Assembly (NCBI GenBank): GCA_965215195.1
Contig: CBDCDC010000002.1
Location: forward strand, 192,001 to 256,000
Source of the DNA: Candidatus Latescibacterota bacterium
Lineage (GTDB): Bacteria > Latescibacterota > UBA2968 > UBA8231
Length of the DNA: 64,000 nt
Reading direction: 5' to 3'
In this document: positions 1 to 16,894 of the stretch, one piece after another
How the letters are laid out: each line of letters begins with the position of its first letter
How positions within the stretch are numbered: the first letter of the stretch is position 1
Notes under the pieces: generated by a model
Seen by the model: only the letters and a program-made list of their open reading frames with translations
The model's database searches: none
Told to the model about the DNA's origin: nothing
Translations under genes and position numbers: made by a program

Positions 1-928
1 TGACCTCGGCATTGTTGACCTGCCCATCCAGCGCGAGACGCACACGGATTACCCGAAAATCGAAGCGTCCGGGTTGAAGGGGAGTATCCGTGAAATTTTC
101 GATGCTCAAAACAAGGATGCTCAAGCTATCAAGCTTGCATTCAAGCTTGCATTCGGCCCTGAGCAAGGCGATCTGCACGCGGGTGCCTTGGGGTTTACCG
201 ATGCACGTCTCTTGCTTTTCCCGGTCAAGTCGGTCAAAGGTGTGTTTGCATGGGTGACGTGCCCAGCAGTTTTGGAGCGTTTCAAATATGACCTCTCCAT
301 TTGCCAACCGAGCATTACGTTTGTTGACGATCTCCCTAGCCGCAATACGGTGCCGACCGAGAGCGGACTCATTGTGAAGGACGAGGGAAATGCCAAGAAA
401 ATCGTGTTGGAAGAATACACGTTCACTGTCAATTCCGACAAAGAATGTGATGCTGTCGCAAAGTGGATTGCCAACAGAGTCCTTCCGCCAGATCTATGCT
501 ATAACTATTGGCATGAGAAGGTGAAACGAATCCTCGTCGTGTTGAGCGATGATGATTTTCGCGATTTCGTGACGCTCTCAACGGAGGTCATCGCCCGAAC
601 CAAAATCGACAGTGAAACCGGCACCGTTCAATCGGGTGCGCTGTGGTACGAGGAATACTTACCTACGGATTCGATTCTTTACTCGCTTGCATTGACGACA
701 CCGCTGTTCTTAAAAGTTGATGGGAATGATGATGCACAAAAGCAAAAAGATGAGAAGGCAAAAAAAGGCATCTTCTATGCTGGCCAAGGGGTGGACAAAA
801 ACCACGAGGAAGCCAAGAAGGTGATGGAATTCTTTGCGGACGGATTGCCGAATATCATCCAAATCGGCGGCAATGCAACCATTGGCAAGGGATTGGTTCG
901 GACACACGTTTATCAACATGGGGGGTAA
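1..928 (+). CDS. cmr4: Type III-B CRISPR RAMP protein Cmr4 (5'-truncated by window edge)
   Basis: Frame 2 from the window start reads DLGIVDLPIQRETHTDYPKIEASGLKGS. Also DARLLLFPVKS, ALWYEEYLP and the C-terminal glycine loop IQIGGNATIGKG. Followed by cmr5 and cmr6. Confidence 0.95.
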   Translation, partial: DLGIVDLPIQRETHTDYPKIEASGLKGSIREIFDAQNKDAQAIKLAFKLAFGPEQGDLHAGALGFTDARLLLFPVKSVKGVFAWVTCPAVLERFKYDLSICQPSITFVDDLPSRNTVPTESGLIVKDEGNAKKIVLEEYTFTVNSDKECDAVAKWIANRVLPPDLCYNYWHEKVKRILVVLSDDDFRDFVTLSTEVIARTKIDSETGTVQSGALWYEEYLPTDSILYSLALTTPLFLKVDGNDDAQKQKDEKAKKGIFYAGQGVDKNHEEAKKVMEFFADGLPNIIQIGGNATIGKGLVRTHVYQHGG

Positions 929-929
929 A

Positions 930-1340
930 ATGATGCCACAAAATCAGACAACACTTAAGGGAATTGAACAGGGGCGGGCCAAGTATGCTTTCTGCGTTGT
1001 CAATGACGTCAGCCAGATCGAATCTGATGACTTAAAAAAGAAGTATAAAACTGCTGCGAAGAAGATTCCTGTTCTAATAAAAACCAACGGGCTTGGGCAA
1101 TCCCTAGCATTCATTAAGAAAAGGAATGATGGTTACGACAAGCTGTACGAGCAGATTGGGAACTGGATCCAAACTGAGGATGCCAAGCAATTGGTTCCGT
1201 CGGGCGAACTTGTCGAAGAGGTTATCCAACTTCAATCGCCTGTCTATCGGCAAGTCACTATCGAAACGCTCGCGCTACTCAATTGGATTCGCCGATTTGT
1301 GGATGGACTCATGAAAGATGTGGAGGCAGACAATGACTAA
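930..1340 (+). CDS. cmr5: Type III-B CRISPR small subunit Cmr5
   Basis: [10 protein letters not shown]...[23 protein letters not shown]...[18 protein letters not shown]; lies between cmr4 and cmr6. Start taken at ATG 930. Confidence 0.93.
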
Positions 1341-2400
1341 CTACCATCCATCCGATACGGAGCAACTGATTCGCTCATGTAACCACCGGATTGACAACTT
1401 TGCTCTACGCTACCGACATTTTTTGCGGATTGATGCCCCAAGAGGCAATGACCTGAAATACAAAATCAACTTTCAGTGTTCCGGTCAGAAGCTTGAGAAA
1501 TCGTCTCAAGAATGTGTCAAGCATCTGAGAGAACGGCAACGCCAGCAACTCCAGCAGTTTGCTATGCGCGGCATTGAACTTTACTGCGTTGATGCAACGG
1601 TTGATTGGCGGCTGATTGTTGGTCTCGGTAGCGAGCATATTCAGGAGACAAACATGACGCTCCATCACATCTACGGCATTCCGTACATTCCCGGAAGTGC
1701 TGTGAAGGGCGTGTTGCGCCACTGGTGGTTGCATGAGGATTTTGACAATGACGAAAACAAAGCCCTGAAAAATAAAAGTTTTCTCGCTCTCTTTGGCAGC
1801 CAAAAACAGCGCGGGAAAGTGCAATTCATTGACGCCTATCCTGATGAAGTCCGTTTTGCAACGGATATCATGAATCCGCACTATCCCGACTATTACAGTG
1901 GCAGCAAACCACCAACAGATTCTCAAAATCCAGTGCCTATCAATTTTTTGACCGTCGAGCAGACCACCTTTCGATTCGCTTTCTTGGCAAAGGATCAAGA
2001 ACTTCTCGATAAACTCAAGGCGCGATTTGAAGATGCCTTAGAAATGAAAGGCATTGGAGCGAAAACAGCGGTTGGTTATGGGTATTTCCGCGATTTTAAA
2101 GACCAGACTGCCAACATAACAGACCGTGAAGCCGATATGCCCGCTCGGCCTTTGAATGCGACCAAAAGCACTATATCAATCACAGCAGACCGCGAAGCCC
2201 GTGAAGTCGGAACTGTAAAATGGTTCAACGCTGCCAGAGGATTCGGTTTTATTGAGCAAGAAGGTGGCGAAGACGTTTTTGTCCATTATTCCGCGATTCA
2301 AGCCAAGGGCTATAAATCTTTGGCAGAGGGTGACTGTGTTGAATTTGACATTACCGAGGGGCCTAAGGGACTCCAAGCTTCAAATGTCGTGAAGCGATAA
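1333..2400 (+). CDS. cmr6: Cmr6 RAMP protein fused to a C-terminal cold-shock domain
   Basis: Cmr6 motifs [35 protein letters not shown] and [11 protein letters not shown]. These are followed in frame by [15 protein letters not shown]...DVFVHYSAI...[10 protein letters not shown] (CSD with RNP1/RNP2). Confidence 0.93.
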
Positions 2401-2587: not shown

Positions 2588-4471
2588 ATGCAAGAAGTAT
2601 TGCGCCAAGCGCGACAGCACATTGACGCGAGTGAATTCGACCGGGCCGAGAGCCTGTGTGCCGATGTCTTGGTGGCCGATCCGGTCTGTGTGCCGGCACA
2701 CCAACTGATGGCGCGGGTGTGGCTGGGACGGAAGCAACCCGACAAAGTGCGCGACCGCCTCGGGTATCGCGACCAGTTGCCCCACGACGAACACTATGTC
2801 GAGTGGGGCCTGATCGCCGAGGAGATGGAAGACTTGGAGACCGCCGGCCAGCTCTATGAAGGGCTGCTGCAGCGGGAGCCGCAAAACGCCGTGGCCCTGT
2901 ACCGGCTGGGCTTGCTGTGCCTCGAACGCGGCGAGCGGGACCGGGCCGTGGGCCTGTTGCAGCGCACCTTGCGGGCGAGTCCAGAGTACGCTCCGGCCGC
3001 GTTTGAGCTGGCCCAGTGCTATGCCGAAGACGAGTTGTGGGGGCTGGCGGCCGATGCGTACGAGCGGGGCTTGGAGCGCGACCCGTCCCATGAGGAGGCC
3101 CGCACCGCCCTGCAAGTGGTGGAGGCGCGGATGCGGGAACTGGCCGAGTTGCCCAGCAGCGAGGTGCCGGCCGGGGAGGGCCCCACGCGGCGGATGCGGG
3201 TATTGTTCGCTGGGCGGGAAAATGTCCACGCCCGGCAGTGGATAGACGAAAATGGCCGGGTTGGGTACAGTCCGGTCCATGAGCCGCTCGCCGAGCATCT
3301 GTTAAGCCTGCATTTGCAAGGGACCGCGACCTTGGGCGTGTACCCGGTGCGGGCCGACCAGACGGTGCTGTTTGGGGCCCTCGATATTGATGTGCGCAAA
3401 AACGCCCTCACCGCGGGGCAGCCGCTCGCCGACCGACTGCGGGAAACCGTGCAGGCCGATGCCCGGCGGCTCGCCCGGCAGTTCGATGCGTTGCACCTGC
3501 CGGTCTATGTGGAGGAGAGCGGGTACAAGGGCGTACATCTGTGGATCTTTCTTGCGGAGCCGGTGCCGGCTGCGGAGGTGAAGCGCTTTTTGGAGGCGGT
3601 CGTCCAGCGGGTCGGCCCCCCTGCGCCCGAGCTCCAGTGGGAGGTATTCCCCAAGCAAGAGCAGGTCGCCGAGGACCAGTTGGGCAATCTGATCAAGTTG
3701 CCGTTGGGCATTCATCTCAAGACTGGGCGGCGGTGTTTGTTCACGGACTTGGAAGGGCAGGAGTACAGCGATCAGGAAGGGTTCCTCCAGCGCATTCAGC
3801 AGGTTGAGCGCAAGGATTTCGAGCGGGCCGTGTCTCGCTTGGTGGCCCGGCCCGAGCAAGGCGGCGCGGCCGGGTCGGCTCAAGCCCTGCGCGAGGCTTT
3901 TCCCGAATACGAGGCCCTGTTCAAGGGCTGCCCGGTCTTGGTCGCCCTTATGGAAAAGGCCGTGGTCACCCATCACCTCACCCACGACGAACGCTTGGTC
4001 CTCAAGTGCGTTTTGGCGCACTTAGGCGACAGGGGGCGTCGGCTGATCCACAGTATTGTCGGGCACTGCCTCGATTACTCTGAGGCGATCACCCAGCAGC
4101 AAATTGAGCGCACCCCGCCCTATCCGGTCAGTTGTCCCAAAATTCGTCAGCGCCTCCCGGAGGTCACTTCAACGGTCAACTGCGCGTGTGTGTTCGAGTT
4201 GCCCGAAGGGGGGTATCCTTCGCCGCTGTTGCATCTCGAGCCAGACTTTACCAAGGGTCGGTCTCACAATGCCGATCGGCACGGGCCGATGGTGGACAAG
4301 TACGTGAATTTGCGGCGGGATTATCAGCGGCTGAGCCGCGAGTTGGCCCACCTCGAAGACGATCTGCGCTACGCGCTTGACTCGAGCGGCCAAGACGAGT
4401 TGCGGGCCGGCGGGTGGATTCTGCGCCGCGATGGGGAGGGTCGCTTAAAGGTGGAGATCGACTTGGGGTGA
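2588..4471 (+). CDS. CRISPR-associated primase-polymerase (CAPP): TPR repeats + AEP domain + PriL-like Cys-rich domain
   Basis: N-terminal TPRs. AEP motifs FGALDID, ESGYKGVHLW and EVFPKQ...GNLIKLPLG. Cys cluster GCPVL/HCLDY/SCPKI/NCAC. RBS AAGGAG. Stop overlaps the cas1 start (GTGA). Confidence 0.85.
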   Translation: MQEVLRQARQHIDASEFDRAESLCADVLVADPVCVPAHQLMARVWLGRKQPDKVRDRLGYRDQLPHDEHYVEWGLIAEEMEDLETAGQLYEGLLQREPQNAVALYRLGLLCLERGERDRAVGLLQRTLRASPEYAPAAFELAQCYAEDELWGLAADAYERGLERDPSHEEARTALQVVEARMRELAELPSSEVPAGEGPTRRMRVLFAGRENVHARQWIDENGRVGYSPVHEPLAEHLLSLHLQGTATLGVYPVRADQTVLFGALDIDVRKNALTAGQPLADRLRETVQADARRLARQFDALHLPVYVEESGYKGVHLWIFLAEPVPAAEVKRFLEAVVQRVGPPAPELQWEVFPKQEQVAEDQLGNLIKLPLGIHLKTGRRCLFTDLEGQEYSDQEGFLQRIQQVERKDFERAVSRLVARPEQGGAAGSAQALREAFPEYEALFKGCPVLVALMEKAVVTHHLTHDERLVLKCVLAHLGDRGRRLIHSIVGHCLDYSEAITQQQIERTPPYPVSCPKIRQRLPEVTSTVNCACVFELPEGGYPSPLLHLEPDFTKGRSHNADRHGPMVDKYVNLRRDYQRLSRELAHLEDDLRYALDSSGQDELRAGGWILRRDGEGRLKVEIDLG

Positions 4472-5466
4472 TTCTCTATGTGACGGATCAGGGCGCGGGG
4501 GTCTATTGCCGCGGCGAGCGTTTGCAGGTGCGGCGGCGCAAGGAAGTATTGGCCGAGGTGCATCTGTACGATCTGGAACAGGTGGTGCTCATGGGCCGGA
4601 TCGCGCTTTCGGCCGCGGCCATGGGCACGTTGCTCGAGCGGGGCGTGGATACAGTCTTGCTGAGCGTGCATGGTCGATACCGGGGCCGGCTGGTCGGACC
4701 CGAACGGCGCAATGTGCTGCTGCGGCAACAGCAGTTCAAGCGCTACGAAGACGAGCCGTTTCGGCTGGGGGTGGGGCGGGCCGTGGTTGAGGGCAAGCTA
4801 CGCAATATGCGGACCCTGCTCATGCGCTTGGCCCGGCGGCGCAGGGTGGATGTGGGGGCGGTGGCCCACTTGCTGCGTCGGTCGATTCAGCAGGTCGGGC
4901 AGGCGACTAACGCGGAGTCGCTACGCGGTTTGGAGGGGGCCGGTAGCGCGGCTTATTTTGGGGTGCTTGGGGACTTTTTTCCCGAGGAACTCCCGTTCAA
5001 GGGACGCAACCGACGGCCGCCCAAGGATCCGGCCAATGCGCTGCTCAGCTTTGGGTATGCTCTGTTAGGCAACAGTGTGGAGGGCGCGGTCTATTTGGCC
5101 GGGCTCGATCCGTACTTGGGCTTTCTGCATGTGGTGGACTATGGGCGTCCTTCGCTCTCGCTGGATTTGATGGAGGAATTTCGGCCGGTGTTGGTTGATG
5201 CGCTGGTCTTGGATTTGGTCAACCACCATCGGGTGCAGAGCGAGGATTTTGAAGCGCGGGACGGAGGGGTATTTTTGCAGGGGGCGGGCCGCAAGCGGCT
5301 GATTGAGGCGTACCAACGCCGTCTCGAAGACCGGGTGGCCTACCCAGTAGGGGCCGAGCGAGTGGAACGGATTTCTTATCGGCGTTGCCTCGAATATCAG
5401 GTGCGCCGATTGGCCCGGGTGATCTTGGGCGAGGAAGACCACTATCGGGCCTTTCTGGTGCGTTGA
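4468..5466 (+). CDS. cas1: CRISPR integrase Cas1
   Basis: LRGLEGAGSAAYF, RNRRPPKDPANALLSFGY, GLDPYLGFLH and SLSLDLMEEFRP. GTG start at 4468 overlaps the CAPP stop. Confidence 0.96.
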   Translation: MILYVTDQGAGVYCRGERLQVRRRKEVLAEVHLYDLEQVVLMGRIALSAAAMGTLLERGVDTVLLSVHGRYRGRLVGPERRNVLLRQQQFKRYEDEPFRLGVGRAVVEGKLRNMRTLLMRLARRRRVDVGAVAHLLRRSIQQVGQATNAESLRGLEGAGSAAYFGVLGDFFPEELPFKGRNRRPPKDPANALLSFGYALLGNSVEGAVYLAGLDPYLGFLHVVDYGRPSLSLDLMEEFRPVLVDALVLDLVNHHRVQSEDFEARDGGVFLQGAGRKRLIEAYQRRLEDRVAYPVGAERVERISYRRCLEYQVRRLARVILGEEDHYRAFLVR

Positions 5467-5467
5467 G

Positions 5468-5743
5468 ATGTTTGTGACGGTTTGCTTTGATATCAGCTCG
5501 GACCGAACCCGTCGGCAGGCGACTCGGGTGCTGGAGGCTTATGGGACGCGGGTGCAGAAGAGTGTGTTCGAATGTCGCATTGGTGAGCGGCAGTTTGTCG
5601 AGTTGCGGCAACGCATGAGTCAGATCAATCTGGGGGCAGGTGATCTGGTGCGCTACTATACGCTGTGCCGGGCTTGTCAGGCCAAAGTCGAATTTACCGG
5701 CGGTTTGCCGCCGCAGGAGGAAAAAGGGCATATCGTCGTTTGA
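5468..5743 (+). CDS. cas2: Cas2
   Basis: VCFDISSDRTR...YGTRVQKSVFEC...DLVRYYTLCRAC; immediately after cas1. Confidence 0.95.
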   Translation: MFVTVCFDISSDRTRRQATRVLEAYGTRVQKSVFECRIGERQFVELRQRMSQINLGAGDLVRYYTLCRACQAKVEFTGGLPPQEEKGHIVV

Positions 5744-6004
5744 AAGGGGGAATTTGCGACTCAGTTTAAGAAAGGGTTGTCAAAATAGCACAATGGGGTT
5801 ATATTTTTTTGTGCCGTAAGGAATTGGGTGCGTTACTTGATCCGATTCTGGGTCGCAAATGGGTAACGGCCTGTCCTAGAATTAGTTGGCTCAGATGCTC
5901 TTGCCACAGTCAGAATGGTTTTGATAGGCGGGTGCCTGTCAAAATGGCCTGAGTCGCATAAGGGGGCTAGACGGACTGTGGCCCAATAAGTTAGAAAGGA
6001 GGCA
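5744..6004 (+). promoter_or_regulatory. CRISPR leader with sigma70-like promoter
   Basis: AT-richer non-coding stretch before the first repeat; TTGTCA(5777)-17 nt-TATATT(5800). Confidence 0.7.
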
Positions 6005-8354
6005 ATCAGAACACTGGACCCGATTTGTAGGGGATTGAAACGAGCCGATATCCGGTGTGGCGGCAAATTCAATACATAAATCAGAACACTGGACCCGATT
6101 TGTAGGGGATTGAAACATGCCGTTTTCGACCTCGCCGCCGGTCCACGTGTACGTATCAGAACACTGGACCCGATTTGTAGGGGATTGAAACACACCCAAG
6201 AGGTGTCCACCCGCACCAGGACCCGAGAGATCAGAACACTGGACCCGATTTGTAGGGGATTGAAACTTCTTGTTCCGCATCCTGCCGCGCAGCTTCCTGG
6301 ATATCAGAACACTGGACCCGATTTGTAGGGGATTGAAACTTTGCCGCGACCCGCTCCATGCACTCGTTAAACTCTTATCAGAACACTGGACCCGATTTGT
6401 AGGGGATTGAAACGTAATTAAACGACACGAGGTTGTTGTGAAACACACACATCAGAACACTGGACCCGATTTGTAGGGGATTGAAACCGAGAAAGTCATC
6501 TTCGGGTGGCGAGTACAGTGGCGAAATCAGAACACTGGACCCGATTTGTAGGGGATTGAAACATCTGTAGGCTGACGTCTTCGATCGTGATGGTATCGGG
6601 GTATCAGAACACTGGACCCGATTTGTAGGGGATTGAAACACGGCACCGACCGCTTCCTCGACCTCCGTAACCACCTATCAGAACACTGGACCCGATTTGT
6701 AGGGGATTGAAACTAATGGTCTCGGTCTCAGTCTCGGCCGAAGTCTCGGTATCAGAACACTGGACCCGATTTGTAGGGGATTGAAACTTCTTGCCCACAC
6801 GAATGTGGGGGTTTTGTGCCTCCGATCAGAACACTGGACCCGATTTGTAGGGGATTGAAACCACTTGGGCGGCCCCATGTCCGCAGCCGAGTTGCTCATA
6901 TCAGAACACTGGACCCGATTTGTAGGGGATTGAAACGAAAAGAAGAGGGCGAACGCCTGGGTCTTGTACCCTCCCAATCAGAACACTGGACCCGATTTGT
7001 AGGGGATTGAAACCACGACTTGTCGAGGGGGAAGTCTTCGGGGAGTCTCTCATCAGAACACTGGACCCGATTTGTAGGGGATTGAAACTGGATGGAGTTC
7101 TGCTGGAGAGCGTACTGGAAACCGAAATCAGAACACTGGACCCGATTTGTAGGGGATTGAAACGGGTCAGCGCCCGCCCGATAGGGTTTCTCGAAGAATC
7201 AGAACACTGGACCCGATTTGTAGGGGATTGAAACTGCCCGAGAACTCGCCGGGACCAATCAGAGACGCACATCAGAACACTGGACCCGATTTGTAGGGGA
7301 TTGAAACTTTTTTTCATACGGGGGTTCCTTCGCGTTGGGCGCGGATCAGAACACTGGACCCGATTTGTAGGGGATTGAAACTCAACCCACCTAGCCCGAA
7401 TCCCCCGAATCCCAAAAAAATCAGAACACTGGACCCGATTTGTAGGGGATTGAAACTTTAGAGAGTTGGGTTAGGTGGTTTGCGGCTTCCTCTTATCAGA
7501 ACACTGGACCCGATTTGTAGGGGATTGAAACTTGATGTCATTAACAGTGATCTGGAACATTTTGGCCTATCAGAACACTGGACCCGATTTGTAGGGGATT
7601 GAAACCCGATCGCCGCCCACCTCGTCCGGCGGATTTACCATCTCATCAGAACACTGGACCCGATTTGTAGGGGATTGAAACTTATGTGGGAATGGGGGTG
7701 GAAAAAAAACGACGAGATCAGAACACTGGACCCGATTTGTAGGGGATTGAAACAATGACTGCCTGACGCGACGGAGCGTCTTGATCAGGTATCAGAACAC
7801 TGGACCCGATTTGTAGGGGATTGAAACTTCATCACGATGCTTAAGTGCTCGGGGGCAATTTTCCCATCAGAACACTGGACCCGATTTGTAGGGGATTGAA
7901 ACTCGTCGAATTCGGGACTGAGCCCATTCTCGGTTTGAACGATCAGAACACTGGACCCGATTTGTAGGGGATTGAAACGCTCCTGCAGGGCAATCAGCGC
8001 CCTCTTGGTTCTTGCCATCAGAACACTGGACCCGATTTGTAGGGGATTGAAACACCTGCACGGTGGTCCCGAGTGCGAGCTCGTTTACAAGGATCAGAAC
8101 ACTGGACCCGATTTGTAGGGGATTGAAACACCTCCGAGACCACTTCGTCGGACTCGAGGTTGATATATCAGAACACTGGACCCGATTTGTAGGGGATTGA
8201 AACGCTTAGTGGGGCGACCTAGAAGAGCCGTTCCTCGAGCGATCAGAACACTGGACCCGATTTGTAGGGGATTGAAACCGATCTGGAACATTTGAGTCTC
8301 CTCAATTGTGGCCGCAGATCAGAACACTGGACCCGATTTGTAGGGGATTGAAAC
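6005..8354 (+). CRISPR. CRISPR array, 32 repeats of 37 nt (ATCAGAACACTGGACCCGATTTGTAGGGGATTGAAAC), 31 spacers of about 34-40 nt
   Basis: Repeats counted by eye from 6005 to 8318. The 3' ATTGAAAC tag and the leader position give the + orientation. Confidence 0.98.
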
Positions 8355-8380
8355 CCCGGAAGGCAGAAAGGAGGAGGCAA

Positions 8381-8482
8381 ATGAAAAAGGTTGTCTGCGC
8401 TGGACCGCCTAGGTCCGGCAGAAGCTATTTGTGCGAGGGATTGAAGCAGGCTATTATAAAAATTACCAAAGACGACCCGTAA
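8381..8482 (+). pseudogene. 33-codon remnant of a P-loop NTPase N-terminus (resembles Csx3/Crn3-linked ATPases)
   Basis: RBS AGGAGGAGG, then MKKVVCAGPPRSGRSYLCEGLKQAII...* (degenerate Walker A GPPxSG[KR]S). The family assignment is from memory, not from a search. Confidence 0.55.
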
Positions 8483-8529
8483 AAGATTGCTGGCGTTGTG
8501 ACTCGCCAAATACAATCGAGGTTTGCGTA

Positions 8530-10230
8530 GTGCCAATCGCTGAAACAGTATTAAACGGCATCCAAGACAGAGGCCGACGAGCACTGCCCATTGAGAGAAT
8601 TTATCGACACCTCTACAACCCCGACCTATTCCTACGTGCTTATGGGCGCATCTACCGAAAAACAGGGGCGACCACACAAGGCATCACAGAAGAAACCACA
8701 GATGGCATGTCAATGAAGAAAATCAATACCCTCCTAGAGAAATTCCGCTGTGAGCGTTACCAATGGACTCCGGTAAGGCGGATATATATTCCCAAGAAAA
8801 ACGGCGGGCGGCGTCCGCTCGGCATCCCCGTTTGGTCCGATAAACTGGTACAAGAAGTCATGCGATCCATACTGGAAGCCTACTATGAACCCCAGTTTAG
8901 CGATCTGTCCCACGGCTTCCGAGCTAACCGAGGCTGTCACTCTGCACTAAGAGAAATTGCAAAATGGAAAGACATAGACTGGTTTATCGAAGGCGACATC
9001 AAAGAATGTTTTGACAGCATAGACCACGATCTACTACTGTCCATATTGAAAGAGAAAGTCCACGATGATCGATTCATTGTCTTACTCGGCCAGCTTCTCA
9101 AGGTCGGATATGTAGAGTATGGGAGCTACAAATCCACCCTGATCGGCACCCCACAAGGAGGGCCTGTAAGCCCAATCTTTGCCAATGTGTATCTCGACAA
9201 GCTGGATAGGTTTGTCGAAAACACACTCATGCCTCGCTATACAAAAGGTAATTGGAAAACCGCGAGGAACTTGCAAAGAATAATGCGGCAAAGGCCGCTA
9301 TCTAATGCCAAAAATCATATCTTTAGACGACTGCGCTATATCCGATACGCCGACGACTTTCTGATTGGCTTTACCGGGCTAGAGGCAGAAGTAAAAGAAG
9401 TCAAGAGGTGCCTCAAAGGATTTCTCCAAGAAAAGCTGAAATTGGAACTATCAGAGGACAAAACCTTGCTCACGTACGCCCGCACCGAGAAAGCACAATT
9501 CCTCGGATACGAAATCAAAAGAATGACTGAAAATACCAAACACAAAAAAGGCCGAAAGCCGATCAACAACGCGCTGAGTCTCAGCGTTCCAATAAGATTC
9601 ATAAAAGAGCGATGTGAACTCTATATAAAATACGGGCGAATAATGCCTCGTGCCGAACTGATCAACGACAGCGACGCCGACATCACGAGTTTCTTTCAGA
9701 GCCGATATGCCGGTTATGTGCAATACTACATGCTTGCCCACAATGTCCACGCCTTAAACGAAGTGCGATGGGTTATGGAGAAGTCCTTGCTCAAGACGCT
9801 TGCCAAAAAGCATAAAACGAGCGTCAATCAGTTTGAAAAACAGTACAAGACGACCATCCAAACACCCCACGGTCCGCAAAAGTGCTTGGAGATGCAGGTG
9901 GTAAATCGAGAAGGAGAACCACAGATCGCACGCTTTGGCGGCATTCCTCTCAGACGACGACAAGGTAAGACCATTGAGGATCAAGCCCAAAATGATGCTC
10001 CCACGAGCAAAGGGACAGAACTCATCCAACGCCTGCTGGCAAACCTATGCGAATGCTGCGGCTCAGCGGGCAGAGTCGAAGTTCACCACATCCGAAAACT
10101 CGCCGACATCAAAAAGGGGAGGTCGCCAAAACCCAAATGGACGCAAGAAATGATCGCGCACCAGCGAAAAACCTTGATTGTGTGCAAAAAGTGTCATCGC
10201 GCCATCCATTCGGACCAAATCAGCCACTGA
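8530..10230 (+). CDS. Group II intron-type reverse transcriptase/maturase with C-terminal HNH endonuclease
   Basis: RPLGIP..DKLVQ, SHGFR, WFIEGDIKECFDSIDH, GTPQGGPVSP, RYADD, thumb/X domain, and CECCG..VEVHHIRKL..RKTLIVCKKCH. GTG at 8530 (MPIAETVL) matches the usual N-terminus of this class. Confidence 0.93.
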   Translation: MPIAETVLNGIQDRGRRALPIERIYRHLYNPDLFLRAYGRIYRKTGATTQGITEETTDGMSMKKINTLLEKFRCERYQWTPVRRIYIPKKNGGRRPLGIPVWSDKLVQEVMRSILEAYYEPQFSDLSHGFRANRGCHSALREIAKWKDIDWFIEGDIKECFDSIDHDLLLSILKEKVHDDRFIVLLGQLLKVGYVEYGSYKSTLIGTPQGGPVSPIFANVYLDKLDRFVENTLMPRYTKGNWKTARNLQRIMRQRPLSNAKNHIFRRLRYIRYADDFLIGFTGLEAEVKEVKRCLKGFLQEKLKLELSEDKTLLTYARTEKAQFLGYEIKRMTENTKHKKGRKPINNALSLSVPIRFIKERCELYIKYGRIMPRAELINDSDADITSFFQSRYAGYVQYYMLAHNVHALNEVRWVMEKSLLKTLAKKHKTSVNQFEKQYKTTIQTPHGPQKCLEMQVVNREGEPQIARFGGIPLRRRQGKTIEDQAQNDAPTSKGTELIQRLLANLCECCGSAGRVEVHHIRKLADIKKGRSPKPKWTQEMIAHQRKTLIVCKKCHRAIHSDQISH

Positions 10231-10282
10231 TGTTAGGCTCTGGCGGTTTGGCCTCTTTATCAAAATCTCAAAGGAGCAACTC

Positions 10283-11665
10283 ATGGAAACAGCCACACAC
10301 CAGCCAGCGAATGAGCCGCACACGATCTTGTTATGCACCGTCGGCGGTGCTCATCAGCCGATTCTTGAGGCAATTGACTCAACGTCACCTAGCTATGTCT
10401 GCTTCTTCTGCACGGACAAAGATCCCGTGACCCAAAAGCCAGGTACTATCGGTCATGTGACCGGTAGTGGCTATGTCATCAAGGCTGACTACAACGAAAC
10501 TAAGCCTACGTTGCCGAATATCCCCACCCAAGCGCGTCTTAATAACGGCGAGTTTGAAACGCAGATAGTCCCGGCGGACGACCTTGATGGGGCTTATTTA
10601 GTCATGCGTAACGCCATCATCAACTTGGCTGCGCGATTTTCGGGCCCCCGATTTATCGCCGACTATACGGGGGGCACCAAGACGATGACGGCGGCACTTG
10701 TATGCGCTGCCTTACAGGGGAGGGATGATGTCGAGCTTCAACTTGTTACGGGTACCCGTTCCACTCCCACCATCGTGGACGATGGAACCGAACAGGCGAT
10801 GACAGCGAGCGTGGCTCGTCTGCGCCTTGAACGGGCGATGGCACCCTATCTTGGGGCTTGGTCGCGGTATGCGTATTACGAAGCCGCGGAAGGGCTGAGA
10901 AGCATCCGAATTGTCAGCAACGACCGCGATCGGCAGGGGTTCCTCTTTGTAAGCTCACTAAGCCGAGCCCTAGCTCTTTGGGATAACTTCAATCATGCCG
11001 ACGCATTAAAGTTGATGCGGCACTATGGAGGGCAAGTCGCTCAATGCTATCCGAAAATGTTGCCTTGGTTGGACTTACTCGCTAAGGAGAAGGGGAACGA
11101 ACCCGCACTGCTGTTTGACCTCTGGTTAAATGCCCAGCGGTGTGCAGCCCAAGGCCGGTTCGACGATGCGATTGCGCGATGGTACCGCCTGCTGGAGTGG
11201 ACAGCTCAATGGCAACTGCAAACGAAGCTCAAGGCCAATACCGCGGATTTTGCATCTGATTTGCTGCCATCGGGTGTTGACGCGGCTCCAAGTAGCGATA
11301 AAAAAATCAAGCTCGGACTTTGGCAGGCATGGCAAGTCGTGAAGCACCATGAACGCCTGTCGGGACCCGCTCAAGAATTCATCAAGAACCACGGGGGGAA
11401 GGTCTTCGATTTACTTAAGGTACGCAACAATTCGATACTGGCTCACGGTTTTCGTCCAGTGAGTGACTCGGACTGGCAGCAGGTGTATTCGTGGACGCAG
11501 GACAAATTCCTGCCTGCCCGTTCTGCGTCAGTTAGCCGCCAAAGCAAACATAAAAAAAGAGCCGGAGCAACTCCCGACCACACCTCCAGAATTCTTCACC
11601 TGAACCGCGTCCGACAGTTACTGGCTCGCTTGATCCGTTTGTCTCAGTACACGACAGCAACCTAA
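10283..11665 (+). CDS. CARF-HEPN cOA-activated ribonuclease (TIGR02710/Csm6-like); C-terminus frameshifted, probable native stop at 11603
   Basis: LLCTVGG, DYTGGTKTMTAAL (CARF), YRLLE, and HEPN RNNSILAH. RBS AAGGAG. CCTG duplication at 11509-11516. Confidence 0.85.
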   Translation: METATHQPANEPHTILLCTVGGAHQPILEAIDSTSPSYVCFFCTDKDPVTQKPGTIGHVTGSGYVIKADYNETKPTLPNIPTQARLNNGEFETQIVPADDLDGAYLVMRNAIINLAARFSGPRFIADYTGGTKTMTAALVCAALQGRDDVELQLVTGTRSTPTIVDDGTEQAMTASVARLRLERAMAPYLGAWSRYAYYEAAEGLRSIRIVSNDRDRQGFLFVSSLSRALALWDNFNHADALKLMRHYGGQVAQCYPKMLPWLDLLAKEKGNEPALLFDLWLNAQRCAAQGRFDDAIARWYRLLEWTAQWQLQTKLKANTADFASDLLPSGVDAAPSSDKKIKLGLWQAWQVVKHHERLSGPAQEFIKNHGGKVFDLLKVRNNSILAHGFRPVSDSDWQQVYSWTQDKFLPARSASVSRQSKHKKRAGATPDHTSRILHLNRVRQLLARLIRLSQYTTAT

Positions 11666-11829
11666 GTTGTGGCACGACGCTGATGGGCTTGGTTGTGCAA
11701 CGGCTGGTTGAAGAAGCCCGAAAGCTGGATCGCCCGGTGCGACGTTTTGCTCTCATTGATCGCCGTTCCCAAGACGAGCAGGACAGCGATCCGTTTGTGC
11801 AGGGCGATTGCCACTGGCTTGACAACTGA
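11659..11829 (+). pseudogene. C-terminal fragment of a second CARF-like protein
   Basis: NLSCGTTLMGLVVQRLVEEARKLDRPVRRFALIDRR...DPFVQGDCHWLDN*. NLSCGT resembles the CARF [DN]xTGG[TK] motif. No upstream part is present. Confidence 0.45.
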
Positions 11830-12339
11830 ATGAGACTGAGGCTATTGATGCCTGCCACTATTCTTTGCTCATCTGCCAGACCCTCCAACGCCTCACGAGC
11901 AACCCCCAGTACAAGCTCAAGCGATACCACATCACGACCCAGTAACACCTGCATTTTTTGCACTTTTGCACCAGTTCGGCCCCTCGCCCCGCTCCTCGCC
12001 CGGCAGTGCCTCTTGCGTAAGTAACGCATTTACAATGCCTTAACGGCCCCTCAACCAAGTCTGGCATTGGATTTGCTATCTATACGTAGGTCGATGGTCC
12101 CTGCCGTGCAGCCGGGAGAGTTTCACGGCCTAATAGGGCAAGCAATTTGGGCACTTGATGCTTTGCAGCTCCCAATTGAAACGGTGAGAGTGCAAATTAT
12201 GCACTTTGAGCACCCCAAGGCCGGTGCTTCTAACTCGCGCAATTTGAGTGCCTTGCAGGCCGTCGGCTCGAAATTGTTGCAACGGAGGGCAAAAATTTGC
12301 GCCTGCTAACCCCATTTCCAAGGAGGTTTCGCGATCCAA

Positions 12340-12885
12340 GAGGTGAAGTGTTGACTCATTGCTAGGGGATTGAAGCTGAGGATGAGGATGGTACGTTGGT
12401 TGTTTTTCGCTACGCGGCGGTAAATTAGCCCAATCAACCTAATAACCGGGAGAACAAGATGGAAGATTATTCGGCGGTAGTCTGCAAAGCCGTAGTGGAT
12501 CATATTTCAATACGCTACGGATCAGCCGGATCAGCCAGATGTTCGAGAAGGTGGGTAGAAACCGAACCCGGCTTGATGCACAGGATTTCTAGAAAATGGC
12601 TGGCGGACCACAGGCGTTGGGTGGAGTTTCGCCACGCGCCCAAGCGGCAACAGGCTGCCGAGGATTCCGAGCGTCGCCGGCGGGCTGTATATGCTCGCTA
12701 TGCCTTGCTCGAGGAATGGGAATTTGTCGATAGTAAACGGCCGGGTAAGGCCCGGTCTTGGTTTGCTCCTATTTGAAGAGTTGCCCCGATTGCTAGGGGA
12801 TTGAAACTGTGGGAGCATGATGGGAGCACGCGGAGCATGAGCCGAGTTGCTTAGCGCGTTGCCCCGTTTTCCAGAGGATCGAAAC
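12340..12885 (+). CRISPR. Relic second CRISPR array with a variant repeat, interrupted by a non-repeat insert
   Basis: Intact 37-mer ATTTGAAGAGTTGCCCCGATTGCTAGGGGATTGAAAC at 12771-12807. Degenerate copies at 12340-12376 and 12849-12885. A 41-nt spacer separates the last two. Confidence 0.7.
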
Positions 12886-12917
12886 CACCCCAGCGCCACA
12901 GCCCAGCGATTCCGCCC

Positions 12918-13637
12918 ATGCGCCTCTGCGACTTTCCAATCCTGACCTTCGACACCTATGGAACCCTGATCGACTGGGAGACGGGAATCTGGGATGCGCT
13001 GCAACCGCTCTGCTCGCGTCTGGCCGACCCGCCGACCCGCGAGGCGGCCCTCGCAGCATTCGCACGGGCGGAATCGGCCGGCCAAGCGGCCACCCCGGAC
13101 CTGCTCTATGCCGACCTCTTGGCAGCCACCCACCGCACACTGGCCCGGACTTGGGGCCGCGAACCCGAGGATGCCGAGAGCATCCGCTTCGGCCAGTCGG
13201 TCGGGGACTGGCCGGCCTTTGCCGACGCGGCCGAATCGCTCGCCTACCTGCAACGCCACCACCGGCTGATCACCCTCACCAATTGCGACCGCGCCAGCTA
13301 CCAGGGCAGTGCCGCCCGCCTCGGCGATCCTTGGGACGCGATTCTCACGGCCGAGGAGATCGGCTCGTACAAACCGTCGCTGGCCAACTTTGAATTCCTG
13401 CTCGCCCGGGTGGCGGCCGACTTTGGCCATGCTCCCGGGAGCATCCTGCACGTCGCCCAGAGCCTCTTTCACGACCACGTGCCGGCCAAGGCGCTCGGAC
13501 TGACGACGGCATGGATTGACCGGCGTGCGGGGCGCAAAGGCGGCGCGACAGTACCGCCGCAGAAGGCAGTGGAACCCGACTTCTGTTTCAAAAGCATGGC
13601 GGAGCTGGTCGCCCAGCATCGCGCCGAACGGGCCTGA
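12918..13637 (+). CDS. HAD-superfamily hydrolase (haloacid dehalogenase type II-like)
   Basis: LTFDTYGTLIDWE, IGSYKPS, LHVAQSLFHD. Confidence 0.92.
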   Translation: MRLCDFPILTFDTYGTLIDWETGIWDALQPLCSRLADPPTREAALAAFARAESAGQAATPDLLYADLLAATHRTLARTWGREPEDAESIRFGQSVGDWPAFADAAESLAYLQRHHRLITLTNCDRASYQGSAARLGDPWDAILTAEEIGSYKPSLANFEFLLARVAADFGHAPGSILHVAQSLFHDHVPAKALGLTTAWIDRRAGRKGGATVPPQKAVEPDFCFKSMAELVAQHRAERA

Positions 13638-13735
13638 ATCCGCCCCGGCGGCGCGTGGACGAAAGCGAAATGCGCCGCTAATTTCTAGAGGACGGCTCCC
13701 CCTTGGTGCTAATGCTAACGGAAGGAGAAAGACGA

Positions 13736-13918
13736 ATGGAGTATCGACACATAATCACCATTGAACCCGGAAAGCGCAGTGGTAAGCCGTGCATTCGCGG
13801 CATGAGGATTACCGGCTATGATGTGCTTGACTATCTCGCCTCGGATATGTCCGTTGAAGAGATTTTGCGCGACTTTCCCGAACTTACGGACGCATCACGC
13901 TGCAATTTTGAGATTTGA
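13736..13918 (+). pseudogene. DUF433-family antitoxin, C-terminally truncated; no toxin partner
   Basis: ITIEPGKRSGKPCIRGMRIT..DVLDYLAS..SVEEILRDFPELT, after which the usual EDIRACLAYAA tail is lost. Confidence 0.75.
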
Positions 13919-13984
13919 GCAAAACGATTTTGCGCTGGAATAAATCGCTTCGTTATACGGGAAAGGATTCAGGATCGAGACCCC

Positions 13985-14746
13985 ATGAGCACACCCCTCC
14001 ACGATCGCATCGCCTTAGTAACGGGCGCGGCTGGCGGCCTTGGCCAAGCAATATGCCGCGCCTTGGCCGCCGAAGGCGCAACAGTCGCCCTGCACTACCG
14101 CACTCAGCAGGATGCTGCCCACGCACTCGCGGCCGAGCTGGGCGGAGCCGCCTTTGAGGCCGATATAACCGAGGCGGCGGCCGCGCAGTCGCTGGTTGAG
14201 GGCGTGGCCGGGGAACTGGGCGGGTTGGACATTTTGGTCAACAACGCCGGCATCACCATCGGCGGGCAGTTCGTGGCCGATATGGCGCTGGCGGACTGGC
14301 ACCGAGTGCTCGATGTCAACCTCAACAGCGTCCTCTATATGTGTAAGGCCGCCCTGCCCCTGATGCGTGAGCGGGGCAGTGGCGCGGTCGTCAATATCGC
14401 CTCGAATGTGGTCAACACCCTGCCCGGCGGGGCCGCAGCGTACGCGACCACCAAGGCCGGGGTCGTGGCCTTGACCAAAGTGCTGTCCAAAGAGGAAGCC
14501 GCGCACGGCATCCGCGTCAATGTGGTGTCGCCGGGGATCATCGACGCCGGGATGGGGCGCGGGGCGCTGGCGCGGCGAGCACCGGCAGTGCGGGCGCAGT
14601 TTCTCAGCAGCATTCCCATGGGCCGGGCCGGCGGGCCGGAAGAGGTGGCCGCGGCCGTGGTCTTTTTGGTCTCGCCGGCGGCCAGCTACGTGACCGGACA
14701 ACACCTAAGCGTCAATGGCGGCGACCGCACCGAGTCCTACCAGTAG
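13985..14746 (+). CDS. SDR-family oxidoreductase (FabG-like)
   Basis: TGAAGGLG, NNAG, YATTK. Confidence 0.92.
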   Translation: MSTPLHDRIALVTGAAGGLGQAICRALAAEGATVALHYRTQQDAAHALAAELGGAAFEADITEAAAAQSLVEGVAGELGGLDILVNNAGITIGGQFVADMALADWHRVLDVNLNSVLYMCKAALPLMRERGSGAVVNIASNVVNTLPGGAAAYATTKAGVVALTKVLSKEEAAHGIRVNVVSPGIIDAGMGRGALARRAPAVRAQFLSSIPMGRAGGPEEVAAAVVFLVSPAASYVTGQHLSVNGGDRTESYQ

Positions 14747-14881
14747 AAGGCACTGCGCCCCAATTTGTGATAGACACCTATACTAACAGTAACTATATTG
14801 GATTACTAACATTTATGAACCTATCGCTCCCGCTGCAATGTCGTCGGGAAGCGCGTCTAATCTCGAAGCGATCTTACTGAA

Positions 14882-16894
14882 ATGAAGTACTTATTCACCG
14901 GCGGCGGCACGGGCGGCCACGTGTACCCGGCCTTGGCCATGGCCAACGAAGTTCGGCAGACGCGGGCAGACGCCGAATTCCTCTATGTGGGCCATCGAGA
15001 CAAGTTAGAGTCTTGGGTGGTGCCCGAGCAGGGGTATCCCATCCGCTTTGTCCGCGCCCGCCCCTTCCCCCGGACGCGCTCTCCGGTGGCCCTGTTGCGG
15101 TTCGCCGGTGCGCTCGCGGTCGGGGTGGTCCAAGGGGTGTGCATCCTCTTGCGCTACCGGCCCCAAGTCATCGTCAGCACGGGCGGCTTTGTCAGTGCGC
15201 CGATCCTCTTCGCGCATGGGGCGTTGGCAAAGGTCGGCCTTTCTCGCGCCCGCGTCTTTATCTACGAGCCGAATGCTTACCCCGGGCTTTTGAACCAAAT
15301 TAGCGGGCGGCTGGCCCAGCGAATCGGGGTGGCGTTTGAGCAGGCGGGCCGCTGGTTCGACATGAAGCGGGTGGCGGTGGTCGGCTATCCGGTGCGCCGC
15401 TCTTTTTTGCACCTCGACCGGTCGGCCGCACGGGAAAAGTTGGGCCTTGCCCAAGGCCGCAAGGTCGTGCTCGCCTTTGGCGGGTCGGGGGGGGCCAAGG
15501 CCATCAACGAGGCCGTGCTCCAAGCCTTGCCCCTCTGGCAAGCGGCCGGGCTGGTGGTCATCCACGTCACCGGTCGCTACAAGGGGCCGGATTACGACGC
15601 CGTGGCAGAGACCGAGGCGGCCTTGGCGGCGATGGGGATGGAGGGAGAATGCGACTGGTATCGACGCCTCGATTACGCGGATCAGATCGCCGATCTGGTC
15701 GCAGCGGCCGATCTGGTCATTTGCCGCTCCGGGGCCGGTACGCTCACCGAGATGGCGGTCAGCGGGACGCCCACCCTGATTGTGCCACTGCCGACCTCGG
15801 CCGAAGACCACCAAGCCCTCAACGCCCGCGAGATGGAGCGGATAGGGGCTGCTCAGGTGCTCTATCAAGAGGCGTTTTGGGACAACGCCGGCATCCACAG
15901 TCGGGTAGATGGAGAAAAAATGGCGCGGCAGGTGCTCGCATTGTGCGCCGACGAGGCGCGCTTGCAGGCCATGGGCAAGGCCGCCAAGACCATGCCCAAG
16001 GCCAACAGCCTCGAACTCATCGCGGCCGAGCTGGACCGCCTCATCGCCGGGCAGCGGCCACCGGCGCTGCGCTTGGAATTGCCCCCGGCCAAAAGCGGCT
16101 TGCCGACCGCTCCCAACGCCTTGCTGCGCTGGGTGCAGGCGCGGGTCGCAGAGGTGGGGGGCGTGGAGGCGATGGAGCGCGGCGAACTGGCCTACCTGCG
16201 CTATCAAGCCGATCGCCTGCTCGCGTCCGAGGGTTGGTGCGAAATCCCGCTGGGGCAGCGCAATGTGGGCGTCAAGCTCGTGGCGGTCTTAAACTACCAA
16301 GAGCGGCTGCCCTTGCTGCTGCACATCCTCACCGACCGCACCCCGGCCGGCCGGCCGCGCCGCTTTTGCGGCGGCGACTTCCGCCACGGGGGTATTATAC
16401 GCCGCAATGCAATTGAATACGGCCTGCGCGGCTTGGGGGCGAGCGACGCGCAAACCCGGGCCGCGCTGCTCAACGCGCTGGCCGCGGACCCCTACTTCGA
16501 GGTGCGGGCGTGGGCCGCGCAGGCCCTCGGGGAGTTGTTTGCAGTTGATGGCGAGATCGAAGGCGTGCTCGGCGCGGCCCTCGACGATAGCGCACCAGAA
16601 GTGGTCGTCCAAGCCCTCGGTGCCCTCGGGAAAATAAGCCACAATTCCGACCTGCTAGCGCGGCTGCGTTGCTTCTACCGGCACCCGAACTGGCAGATTC
16701 GCGAGCAGGTCGTGCTGGTGCTGATCGAATTTTTGCAGCGCGGCGTCTTGGAGCCGGCGCAATTGGAGCGCGATCTCGACCAAGTCCTGATCTCGATGCC
16801 TTATTTCAAGCCGGAGTTTCCCCTCGGCACACACCTGCGCGAATTGGCCGATCTCGTGCACACCGAGCGGTCCCTAGTGGCTTCGCAGCGATGA
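14882..16894 (+). CDS. murG: MurG-like glycosyltransferase with C-terminal HEAT-repeat extension
   Basis: TGGGTGGHVYPA, STGGFVS, EPNAYPG, FGGSGGA, RSGAGTL, DHQALNA. C-terminal DPYFEVRAWAAQALG/DSAPEVVVQALGALG/HPNWQIRE repeats. Confidence 0.88.
   Translation: MKYLFTGGGTGGHVYPALAMANEVRQTRADAEFLYVGHRDKLESWVVPEQGYPIRFVRARPFPRTRSPVALLRFAGALAVGVVQGVCILLRYRPQVIVSTGGFVSAPILFAHGALAKVGLSRARVFIYEPNAYPGLLNQISGRLAQRIGVAFEQAGRWFDMKRVAVVGYPVRRSFLHLDRSAAREKLGLAQGRKVVLAFGGSGGAKAINEAVLQALPLWQAAGLVVIHVTGRYKGPDYDAVAETEAALAAMGMEGECDWYRRLDYADQIADLVAAADLVICRSGAGTLTEMAVSGTPTLIVPLPTSAEDHQALNAREMERIGAAQVLYQEAFWDNAGIHSRVDGEKMARQVLALCADEARLQAMGKAAKTMPKANSLELIAAELDRLIAGQRPPALRLELPPAKSGLPTAPNALLRWVQARVAEVGGVEAMERGELAYLRYQADRLLASEGWCEIPLGQRNVGVKLVAVLNYQERLPLLLHILTDRTPAGRPRRFCGGDFRHGGIIRRNAIEYGLRGLGASDAQTRAALLNALAADPYFEVRAWAAQALGELFAVDGEIEGVLGAALDDSAPEVVVQALGALGKISHNSDLLARLRCFYRHPNWQIREQVVLVLIEFLQRGVLEPAQLERDLDQVLISMPYFKPEFPLGTHLRELADLVHTERSLVASQR

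Follow-up and report, generated by a model that had tools for sequence, protein, structure and literature searches.

The window analysed here, a 64,000-nt stretch of a Candidatus Latescibacterota genome, contains a type III CRISPR locus in which the array is followed by a gene for a complete group II intron-type reverse transcriptase (RT) with an HNH endonuclease tail. The intron ribozyme has been lost on both flanks of this gene. We are highly confident that its product is a domesticated, CRISPR-linked, functional enzyme. The gene is best read as an independent domestication of a full intron-encoded protein (IEP) by a type III adaptation module, probably, by analogy with known CRISPR-associated RTs, for the acquisition of RNA-derived spacers.

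The RT protein and its missing ribozyme

The interval under study, positions 8483-10282, is the gap from the stop codon of a small open reading frame (ORF) at 8482 to the ATG of a CARF gene at 10283. The RT frame lies inside it on the + strand, and the open frame extends at most over 8431-10230. Our chosen start, GTG 8530, matches the equivalent start codon of five orthologues (M/V-x-I/V-A-E). An earlier note on this DNA had described the gene as a 566-codon ORF with RT motifs, YADD, thumb and a zinc-HNH tail, and that description was borne out. The features of the gene are:

8530..10230, +, RT-HNH protein, group II intron-type and ribozyme-less, 566 aa from GTG to stop, comprising RT0-7, X/thumb, D and HNH (endonuclease, En) regions (Pfam, LtrA alignment, structural model)
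9229..9324, +, shortened linker between RT motifs 4 and 5, a clade-specific deletion site (residues 234-265; model confidence is low at 252-262)
9346..9357, +, YADD polymerase active-site motif (residues 273-276; invariant in 19/19 clade sequences)
10048..10209, +, HNH/zinc endonuclease motif C507, C510, H519, H520, C552, C555, H556, H560 (PF21368; invariant in 19/19; aligned with the LtrA En domain)

Pfam recognised RVT_1 at residues 87-329 (E 2.2e-30), Intron_maturas2 at 370-439 (E 7.3e-11) and the AI2M-like HNH family PF21368 at 507-556 (E 4.1e-14); the tail pattern CxxC...HH...CxxCH...H spans residues 507-560. Among solved proteins, LtrA from the Ll.LtrB intron is nearest (E 2.5e-99) and aligns over the full length including En, so the window protein has the IEP architecture of RT, X/maturase, D and HNH. 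We label the parent intron class LtrA-like (ML) from this best solved match, not from a classified reference set. Solved CRISPR RTs were far weaker matches (Cas6-RT-Cas1, 4.4e-13; CaCART, 2.5e-10). An AlphaFold model from an 84-row alignment had a mean per-residue confidence (pLDDT) of 83.7 and a predicted template-modelling score (pTM) of 0.82, and it superposed on LtrA (8h2h_D) with a template-modelling score (TM) of 0.81, on GsI-IIC RT with 0.55 and on G2L4 with 0.42. A model from a shallow 19-row alignment (pLDDT 43.6) was discarded in its favour.

Profile scores did not set the protein apart from intron proteins. The three PADLOC CRISPR-RT profiles gave 193, 120 and 77 bits, compared with 200, 125 and 80 for a genuine intron protein (L008), and the LtrA-like 'HEase' model gave 335 bits for the window RT and 419 for L008. 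The TIGR04416 score is 270 bits, below the cutoff of 300. We rejected this shortfall as a sign of divergence because six genuine intron relatives of the same protein family also miss the cutoff, at 262-287 bits.

The earlier note had argued that the gene lacks its ribozyme, partly from the short distances around it. Those distances are all correct: the RT gene begins 175 nt after the last perfect repeat (which ends at 8354) and 47 nt after the small ORF, and it stops 52 nt short of the CARF gene. At Rfam gathering thresholds the 64-kb window gave no hits. At E ≤ 10, the region 7900-11000 gave eight (SECIS_3, six CRISPR-DR9 and UCA1), with no Intron_gpII (RF00029) and no D1-D4 family among them. 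As a lineage-specific test, nhmmer profiles were built from the sequences flanking the ORFs of genuine introns of this protein family (L006-L077), with 800 nt on the upstream side for the 5′ profile (54 introns) and 200 nt on the downstream side for the 3′ profile (57 introns), eight being held out each. The 5′ profile recovered 8/8 held-out introns (E 5e-114 to 2e-218), as did the 3′ profile (E 2e-8 to 4e-37). Applied to the window and to five orthologous loci (L001-L005), the 5′ profile gave only one match near the gene at E ≤ 10, an E = 1.3 hit at 8518-8558 that is the start of the ORF itself, and the 3′ profile matched none of the six. Rfam found domains V/VI right after the ORF in three of four genuine introns (L006, L007 and L009; not L016). 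Over the whole of L001-L005 it found no intron family at E ≤ 1 and no domain V/VI after the RT ORF. There is also little space for them, since in four of the six loci the RT stop codon is only 13-52 nt from the next gene. In the window, then, neither domains I-III/IVa upstream nor domains V/VI downstream of the gene were found; the same methods recover genuine introns, and the ribozyme is lost on both sides.

Orthologues, descent and selection

A protein search returned 19 clusters (P0002-P0020, 541-639 aa) at 64-99% identity to the window RT. The next matches dropped to 58% or less and were typical 'group II intron reverse transcriptase/maturase' proteins of about 595 aa. Two partial proteins, P0055 (483 aa) and P0064 (392 aa, 76% identity), were excluded. 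Contigs longer than 10 kb carried 14 of these 19 clusters, compared with 19 of the 101 clusters ranking below them. Since assemblies tend to break at repeated elements, this is a soft hint that the gene is single-copy. When one genome was scanned per species, five loci were found, L001-L005, at 65-72% identity, all in Candidatus Latescibacterota and three of them on complete chromosomes. The other 72 loci of the scan, at about 50% identity, came mostly from Dehalococcoidia, cyanobacteria and Actinomycetota, often several per genome. Among the 80 loci kept, each Latescibacterota genome was represented by one locus, and some Dehalococcoidia genomes by three or four.

We examined the relatives over about 10 kb on each side of the RT, roughly 100 kb of orthologous loci in all. 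In 6/6 loci (the window and L001-L005) the RT start is preceded at 23-422 nt by the end of a CRISPR array. The arrays of the five relatives have a repeat related to that of the window, and the RT-proximal repeat is degenerate in three of them (L001, L003 and L004). The order CRISPR-associated primase-polymerase (CAPP), Cas1, Cas2, array, RT is present in all five loci long enough to contain it (the window and L002-L005; NCBIfam on 57 ORFs of the relatives), the L001 sequence beginning within its array. In each of these five, cas2, leader and array (0.8-5 kb) separate the RT from cas1.

Downstream of the RT there is more variation. The window and four of the five relatives have a CARF gene after the RT, of the TIGR02710 family in the window, L001 and L004 and of TIGR02221 in L002 and L003; in L001-L003 the gene next to the RT begins 13, 21 and 21 nt past the RT stop. 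In L001-L005 the type III effector genes come next. Effector genes are of type III-B in the window and in L001 (Cmr1-6 in the latter) and III-D-like, with Csx10/Csx19-type genes, in L002-L005. The effector module and its position thus vary while the array-RT junction is constant in all six loci, which means that the RT keeps to the block of array and adaptation genes and not to the effector module. The earlier note had tentatively attributed the domestication to a type III-B system. CRISPR type III is right, but the tie to III-B as such does not hold, because four of the five relatives have III-D-like effectors; what the RT accompanies is the CAPP-Cas1-Cas2-array block.

Several local irregularities were seen in the relatives. 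In L001 the array is broken at 1121-1668 by about 550 nt between two repeats, and this insert contains a 138-codon ORF (1248-1664). L005 alone has long gaps flanking the RT in both directions, 422 nt upstream (9573-9994) and 637 nt downstream (11654-12290), and no CARF gene comes after its RT. By eye, its upstream gap has a short ORF, which we take to resemble the start of a PHP-type phosphoesterase. In L004, CARF-like coding sequence was recognised by eye at 11717-11949, about 118 nt past the RT stop and in another frame than the ORF at 11950; a frameshift in L004, or an error in its sequencing, may account for this. L002 has a fragment of an IS1182-family transposase (550-1014, − strand) upstream of the cas genes.

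The main rival to a role in adaptation holds that the RT-HNH protein serves interference or signalling as an accessory, or is a defence gene of its own within the same island. Like stand-alone defence RTs, it would then act as a nuclease/polymerase effector alongside the CARF-HEPN protein. CARF genes start within 13-52 nt of the RT in the window and L001-L003 and one is also downstream in L004, the array lies between the RT and cas1-cas2, and defence-RT models match the RT domain weakly (UG17, 115 bits; Drt3a, about 50 bits). However, L005 retains the array-RT junction with no CARF gene following, the CARF family and effector type both change around a constant CAPP-Cas1-Cas2-array-RT order, and a genuine intron protein matches the defence-RT models at least as well. 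We therefore consider an interference-side or stand-alone defence role unlikely, though it is the alternative to be taken most seriously.

Descent of the RT was read from a tree of 75 proteins. In it, the window RT, L001-L005 and P0002-P0020 were joined by 48 intron proteins, and two plasmid intron proteins formed the outgroup. To choose the intron proteins we took every third of P0021-P0121 and every second locus and dropped 19 near-duplicates; the outgroup proteins were L078, which comes from E. coli (37% identity), and L079, which comes from B. thuringiensis (34% identity). In IQ-TREE (LG+G4), the 25 proteins that are CRISPR-linked or at least 64% identical formed one clade with an ultrafast bootstrap of 100 and an SH-aLRT of 100, on a stem of 0.46 substitutions/site. 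This clade is nested in the intron-protein family, which is itself supported at 100/99 against the outgroup; its sister is a group of three intron proteins, with weak support (94/79). FastTree and a quick search agreed with this placement. The outgroups join as long branches, so the position of the root is approximate. Genomic context is known for 6 of the 25 members, all from one phylum.

The 25-protein clade has a single origin. It comprises four subclades, each with at least one locus of confirmed CRISPR context. The earlier note had called the domestication early or independent. We keep independent rather than early because the recruitment is old enough for the split into four subclades, and an early date is not demonstrable. 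Comparisons between subclades gave identities of 83-89% for Cas1 and CAPP and of 64-71% for the RT, and the loci rank the same by all three proteins; therefore the genes have been inherited together, with the RT evolving faster.

Across the six RT genes, Nei-Gojobori ratios of nonsynonymous to synonymous divergence (dN/dS) were 0.110-0.190 in all 15 pairs. Values of dS between subclades are saturated at 1.1-2.3. The three unsaturated pairs (dS 0.22-0.52) gave 0.12-0.15, with no domain above 0.38 and X/thumb at 0.07-0.10. For comparison, 25 intron pairs of like divergence gave 0.10-0.37 in 21 cases, and the other four were saturated and had no estimate. The motif-3 aspartate is invariant in 19/19 clade sequences, as are YADD and the eight HNH/zinc residues. 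These ratios and motifs indicate a gene under purifying selection with its catalytic sites intact.

A very different view would be that the RT is a recently dead intron fragment that stays open by chance, or that its junctions are assembly artefacts. Truncated introns are common in bacteria, and the window and most of its relatives are metagenome-assembled. But frames are intact in 6/6 loci (552-573 aa) with invariant catalytic residues, and the two findings by which the earlier note would have recognised such a case are contradicted. The array-RT junction is present in six independent assemblies, three of them complete chromosomes, and not chimeric; dN/dS, at 0.11-0.19, is not near 1, and the RT, with orthologues in five relatives, is not unique to one strain. 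The third outcome that the note named as counting against its reading, a domain V/VI or split ribozyme, did not turn up in the window or the five orthologous loci either. We give this view almost no credence.

The clade has nevertheless changed relative to intron proteins. A deletion of at least 17 residues between RT-4 and RT-5, variable in size between subclades, is present in 25/25 clade members, compared with full-length segments in 48/48 intron proteins and both outgroups. The earlier note had suspected a shortened insertion after RT-4 here, and it is real; the two strings quoted there, YTKGNWKTAR and ...CACTGATGTTAGG, are present in the sequence. A literature search on the role of this insertion under the name 'RT4a' did not find the term. 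Residues kept in 44-48 of the 48 intron proteins but replaced in the clade are W198 (to G), R394, D262, R459 and L465. Among clade members, X/thumb and the RT core are conserved to the same degree (mean identity 0.68-0.71); between clade and introns, X/thumb and D are the most diverged regions, at 0.45 and 0.37 identity. This pattern fits a functional shift on the stem branch followed by renewed constraint.

These changes also bear on whether the RT is still an intron protein that serves, in trans, ORF-less group II introns at other sites of the genome as their maturase and mobility factor, with its position at the array a historical accident. The full IEP architecture is retained, X/thumb is well conserved in the clade and has a low dN/dS in close pairs, and the relatives were viewed over only about 10 kb per side. 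Such a role would nonetheless leave the array-RT junction in 6/6 loci across saturated dS unexplained. It also sits poorly with the loss of intron-conserved residues and of the RT-4/RT-5 segment, with X and D being the very domains that diverged most from intron proteins, and with the finding of no intron RNA in the 64-kb window or in the orthologous loci. We regard it as very improbable.

The surrounding CRISPR locus

All genes of the locus are on the + strand:

2..928, +, cmr4, a type III-B RAMP gene with its 5′ end cut by the window edge (TIGR02580, 214 bits vs. a cutoff of 87; Pfam RAMPs)
1318..2400, +, cmr6 with a C-terminal cold-shock domain (TIGR01898, 167 bits vs. a cutoff of 51; Pfam CSD E 2.7e-27, residues 298-359)
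2588..4471, +, CAPP-TPR, a CAPP with TPR, AEP and C-terminal domains (NF040561 PrimPol_Msp, 361 bits vs. a cutoff of 200)
4468..5466, +, cas1 (Pfam Cas_Cas1 E 1.6e-95; TIGR00287, 293 bits; start set by alignment to 332-aa orthologues)
5468..5743, +, cas2 (TIGR01573, 61 bits vs. a cutoff of 24.5)
5744..6004, +, leader with the region's sole promoter-like site (5777-5805; TTGTCA-17-TATATT, 10/12 matches, a consensus match only)
6005..8354, +, CRISPR array of 32 identical repeats, each 37 nt long, with 31 spacers of 34-40 nt
8427..8445, +, possible degenerate terminal repeat inside the small ORF (local alignment to the 3′ half of the repeat; weak, with 27/2000 shuffles scoring as high)
10283..11665, +, CARF-HEPN ancillary gene of the Csm6/Csx1 type, TIGR02710 family (156 bits vs. 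a cutoff of 84; Pfam Csm6 HEPN; PADLOC CARF_HEPN, 386 bits)

The RT lies between the array and the CARF-HEPN gene. Because the repeat terminates in ATTGAAAC and the leader is on the cas2 side, the RT is beyond the trailer end of the array. The primase-polymerase, a CAPP_A TPR-type Prim-Pol, adjoins cas1-cas2 as in the CAPP-Cas1-Cas2 adaptation module. It is further supported by the Pfam AEP-TOTE and TPR families and by the PADLOC PrimPol 'adaptation polymerase' model (274 bits). Its stretches DIDVRK and SGYKGVHLW are unchanged across five loci; we take these to be the DxD and sGxGxH-like motifs. The spacers were uninformative: the whole array had no match in a phage collection (blastn, E ≤ 0.01), and the 31 spacers had only chance matches of up to 15 nt in the rest of the window.

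One small ORF (8381-8482, + strand, 33 codons) separates array and RT, with an RBS-like (ribosome-binding-site-like) AGGAGG upstream of it. The earlier note saw an upstream remnant and decayed neighbouring fragments around the RT. We found nothing there but this ORF, which had no family match (best E 0.12) and overlaps the weak repeat remnant. No promoter- or terminator-like site was found on the + strand of 8355-8529, using an E. coli-type consensus that may not be the host's. When the six loci were searched for a conserved RNA or promoter between array and RT, nothing aligned except some 20 nt ahead of the start codon, with an RBS-like AAGGRG and ATGCGTC. The gaps of 23-422 nt, with no promoter- or terminator-like site between, are consistent with the RT probably being transcribed together with the array.

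Other observations concern the rest of the window. The 30 nt before the first repeat (5973-6002) and the 30 nt spanning the end of the last repeat (8345-8374) are 70% alike and have ...AGAAAGGAGG in common, which may be chance. The cold-shock fusion in cmr6 (1318-2400) has a counterpart in L004, where a TIGR03986-type type III RAMP protein (13367-14971) has an N-terminal cold-shock domain; thus two different type III RAMP proteins of this phylum are joined to an RNA-binding OB fold. Past the CARF gene, a 362-aa ORF on the opposite strand (12531-13619, −) had no Pfam, NCBIfam or PADLOC match. At about 38163-38310 and 42468-42615, 72-nt tandem units lie inside the ORFs 37078-38730 and 41260-42750. 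In translation they resemble leucine-rich repeats of 24 residues, and the 'array' that a k-mer scan reported there is false.

Proposed role and known systems

The explanation we favour starts from an ancestor within Latescibacterota, in which an LtrA-like mobile group II intron would have entered a type III array at its trailer end. The ribozyme would then have disappeared from both sides, and the complete protein (RT, maturase/thumb, DNA-binding and HNH domains) would have been retained as a host gene, now a fixed member of a block of CAPP, Cas1, Cas2, leader plus array, and RT. The RT would probably be expressed as a 3′ extension of the array transcript, along with the downstream CARF gene. 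It may make cDNA from RNA, from which Cas1-Cas2 would integrate RNA-derived spacers for the RNA-targeting type III effector. The CAPP could contribute priming, second-strand synthesis or gap filling, and the HNH domain could nick or trim, for example to provide a 3′-OH primer. We place somewhat better than even confidence in this explanation as a whole. On the separate question of whether the RT acts in adaptation, for which the argument is analogy with RT-Cas1 and other CRISPR-associated RTs, we are evenly divided. The identity of the protein, the loss of its ribozyme, its conserved position, single origin, purifying selection and intact catalytic motifs are all observed here; co-transcription, spacer acquisition and the HNH function are inferred.

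Several points weigh against this explanation. The RT is not beside cas1, with cas2, the leader and the whole array intervening. A CARF signalling gene is usually directly downstream, so the RT could belong to the interference side. The role given to HNH is a guess. The RT evolves faster than Cas1 and CAPP, and the spacers carry no record of their source in the phage collection or the window. The promoter scan relied on an E. coli-type consensus, which may not suit this phylum. Finally, context is known for about a quarter of the clade and from a single phylum, and therefore the synteny could partly reflect inheritance rather than selection; the counterweights are the saturated dS between subclades and the exchange of effector modules around the block.

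The protein could also do more than supply cDNA, by running a ribozyme-free, retrohoming-like reaction at the CRISPR array. If the mRNA of the RT is the 3′ tail of the precursor CRISPR RNA, the maturase/thumb could bind CRISPR or trailer RNA in cis, in place of intron domain IVa. HNH would then nick array DNA, and the nick would serve as primer when an RNA protospacer, or the array transcript itself, is copied by target-primed reverse transcription. If true, RNA-derived spacers or array copies would arise by a route unlike that of RT-Cas1. We think this improbable.

For the domestication of a full IEP in an adaptation block, the interest lies in the stage of evolution that the lineage would represent. 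The published three-step origin of CRISPR RTs (an intron enters a type III locus, its RNA is lost, the RT is kept) rests on RTs too diverged to show intermediates. The lineage described here is 50-58% identical to working intron proteins, with maturase, DNA-binding and HNH domains, and it shows the first changes in the protein after loss of the ribozyme. This closeness makes the transition comparable residue by residue with LtrA-type ribonucleoprotein structures. A separate, complete RT and an apparently active CAPP in one block form a natural system for the contribution of each polymerase, and of HNH, to acquisition. For RNA-recording tools, the RT-HNH protein adds a new RT-nuclease candidate.

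According to the literature, CRISPR RTs go back to group II introns that moved into type III loci and, with their RNA lost, evolved together with Cas1 (PMC6013744), at several independent times (PMC6013744, PMC8632793). Fifteen clades have been listed, of which clade 12 is described as adjacent or fused to an AEP primase (PMC8632793). Silas et al. describe CRISPR RTs as having neither intron RNA structure nor additional IEP domains, with one independent recruitment in Methanosarcina (PMC5513706). CRISPR-associated RTs (CARTs) are classed as stand-alone, Cas1-fused, Cas6-Cas1-fused and CAPP-fused, the Prim-Pol being reported inactive in the fusions (PMC10415136). RT-Cas1 is reported to take spacers from RNA (PMC5513706; 10.1101/2023.09.01.555893), and CAPPs are reported to bind Cas1-Cas2 and to occur as RT-CAPP fusions (PMC8211822, PMC10415136). 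Toro et al. set aside an ML-class intron beside a CRISPR locus in Herpetosiphon, which is described as having intron RNA structure (PMC5541045). Our literature search found no description of a CRISPR-linked RT with HNH, the published supplementary tables of CRISPR RTs lying outside it, and a search on Latescibacter* with CRISPR and reverse transcriptase found nothing.

Against this background, the window RT shares with mobile group II intron IEPs that have an En domain, such as LtrA, the order RT0-7, X, D, HNH with YADD and HNH intact, and it is 50-58% identical to many genuine intron proteins and 34% identical to LtrA. It differs from them in having no flanking ribozyme, a fixed chromosomal site after a CRISPR array, the RT-4/RT-5 deletion, the loss of intron-invariant residues and a single-copy-like assembly pattern. 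With known CRISPR-associated RTs it has in common group II intron ancestry, the lack of intron RNA and conservation in type III loci with Cas1-Cas2 and a Prim-Pol, as these are described (PMC8632793, PMC10415136, PMC6013744). Like CARTs, it is conserved in CRISPR-Cas loci across species, in all six loci with known context. Unlike them, it retains extra IEP domains that the known ones reportedly lack (PMC5513706); it is unfused, placed after the array and away from cas1, CAPP and cas6; and it is nearer LtrA than the solved CARTs, with CRISPR-RT profile scores like those of an intron protein.

Its published precedent is the CRISPR-linked RT of Methanosarcina (branch 11 of Silas, clade 1 of Toro), described as a separate, later recruitment of an intron-type RT that falls among intron RTs in trees (PMC5513706, PMC6013744). 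That RT is archaeal, reportedly from a class F intron, and described as lying beside cas6 in a locus without cas1, whereas the window RT is bacterial and LtrA-like with HNH, in a locus with CAPP-Cas1-Cas2. G2L4 is likewise described as a domesticated intron-type RT without a ribozyme, but with a DNA repair role and no CRISPR link in that description (PMC12337344), and its fold match to the window RT is low, as given above. The CAPP-TPR/Cas1/Cas2 module of the Marinitoga piezophila type is reported to have the same TPR-AEP-C-terminal-domain layout followed by cas1-cas2 (PMC8211822); an RT goes unmentioned in the passages describing that operon, and the window locus has a separate one. The RT-containing CAPPs described so far are short-RT fusions with an inactive Prim-Pol (PMC10415136), whereas the two enzymes of the window are separate and motifs are kept in both.

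The window RT lineage thus fits the general model for the origin of CRISPR RTs but differs in four ways: CRISPR-RT profiles are no closer to it than to an intron protein, it keeps the X, D and HNH domains, it stands after the array, and it coexists with a separate CAPP.

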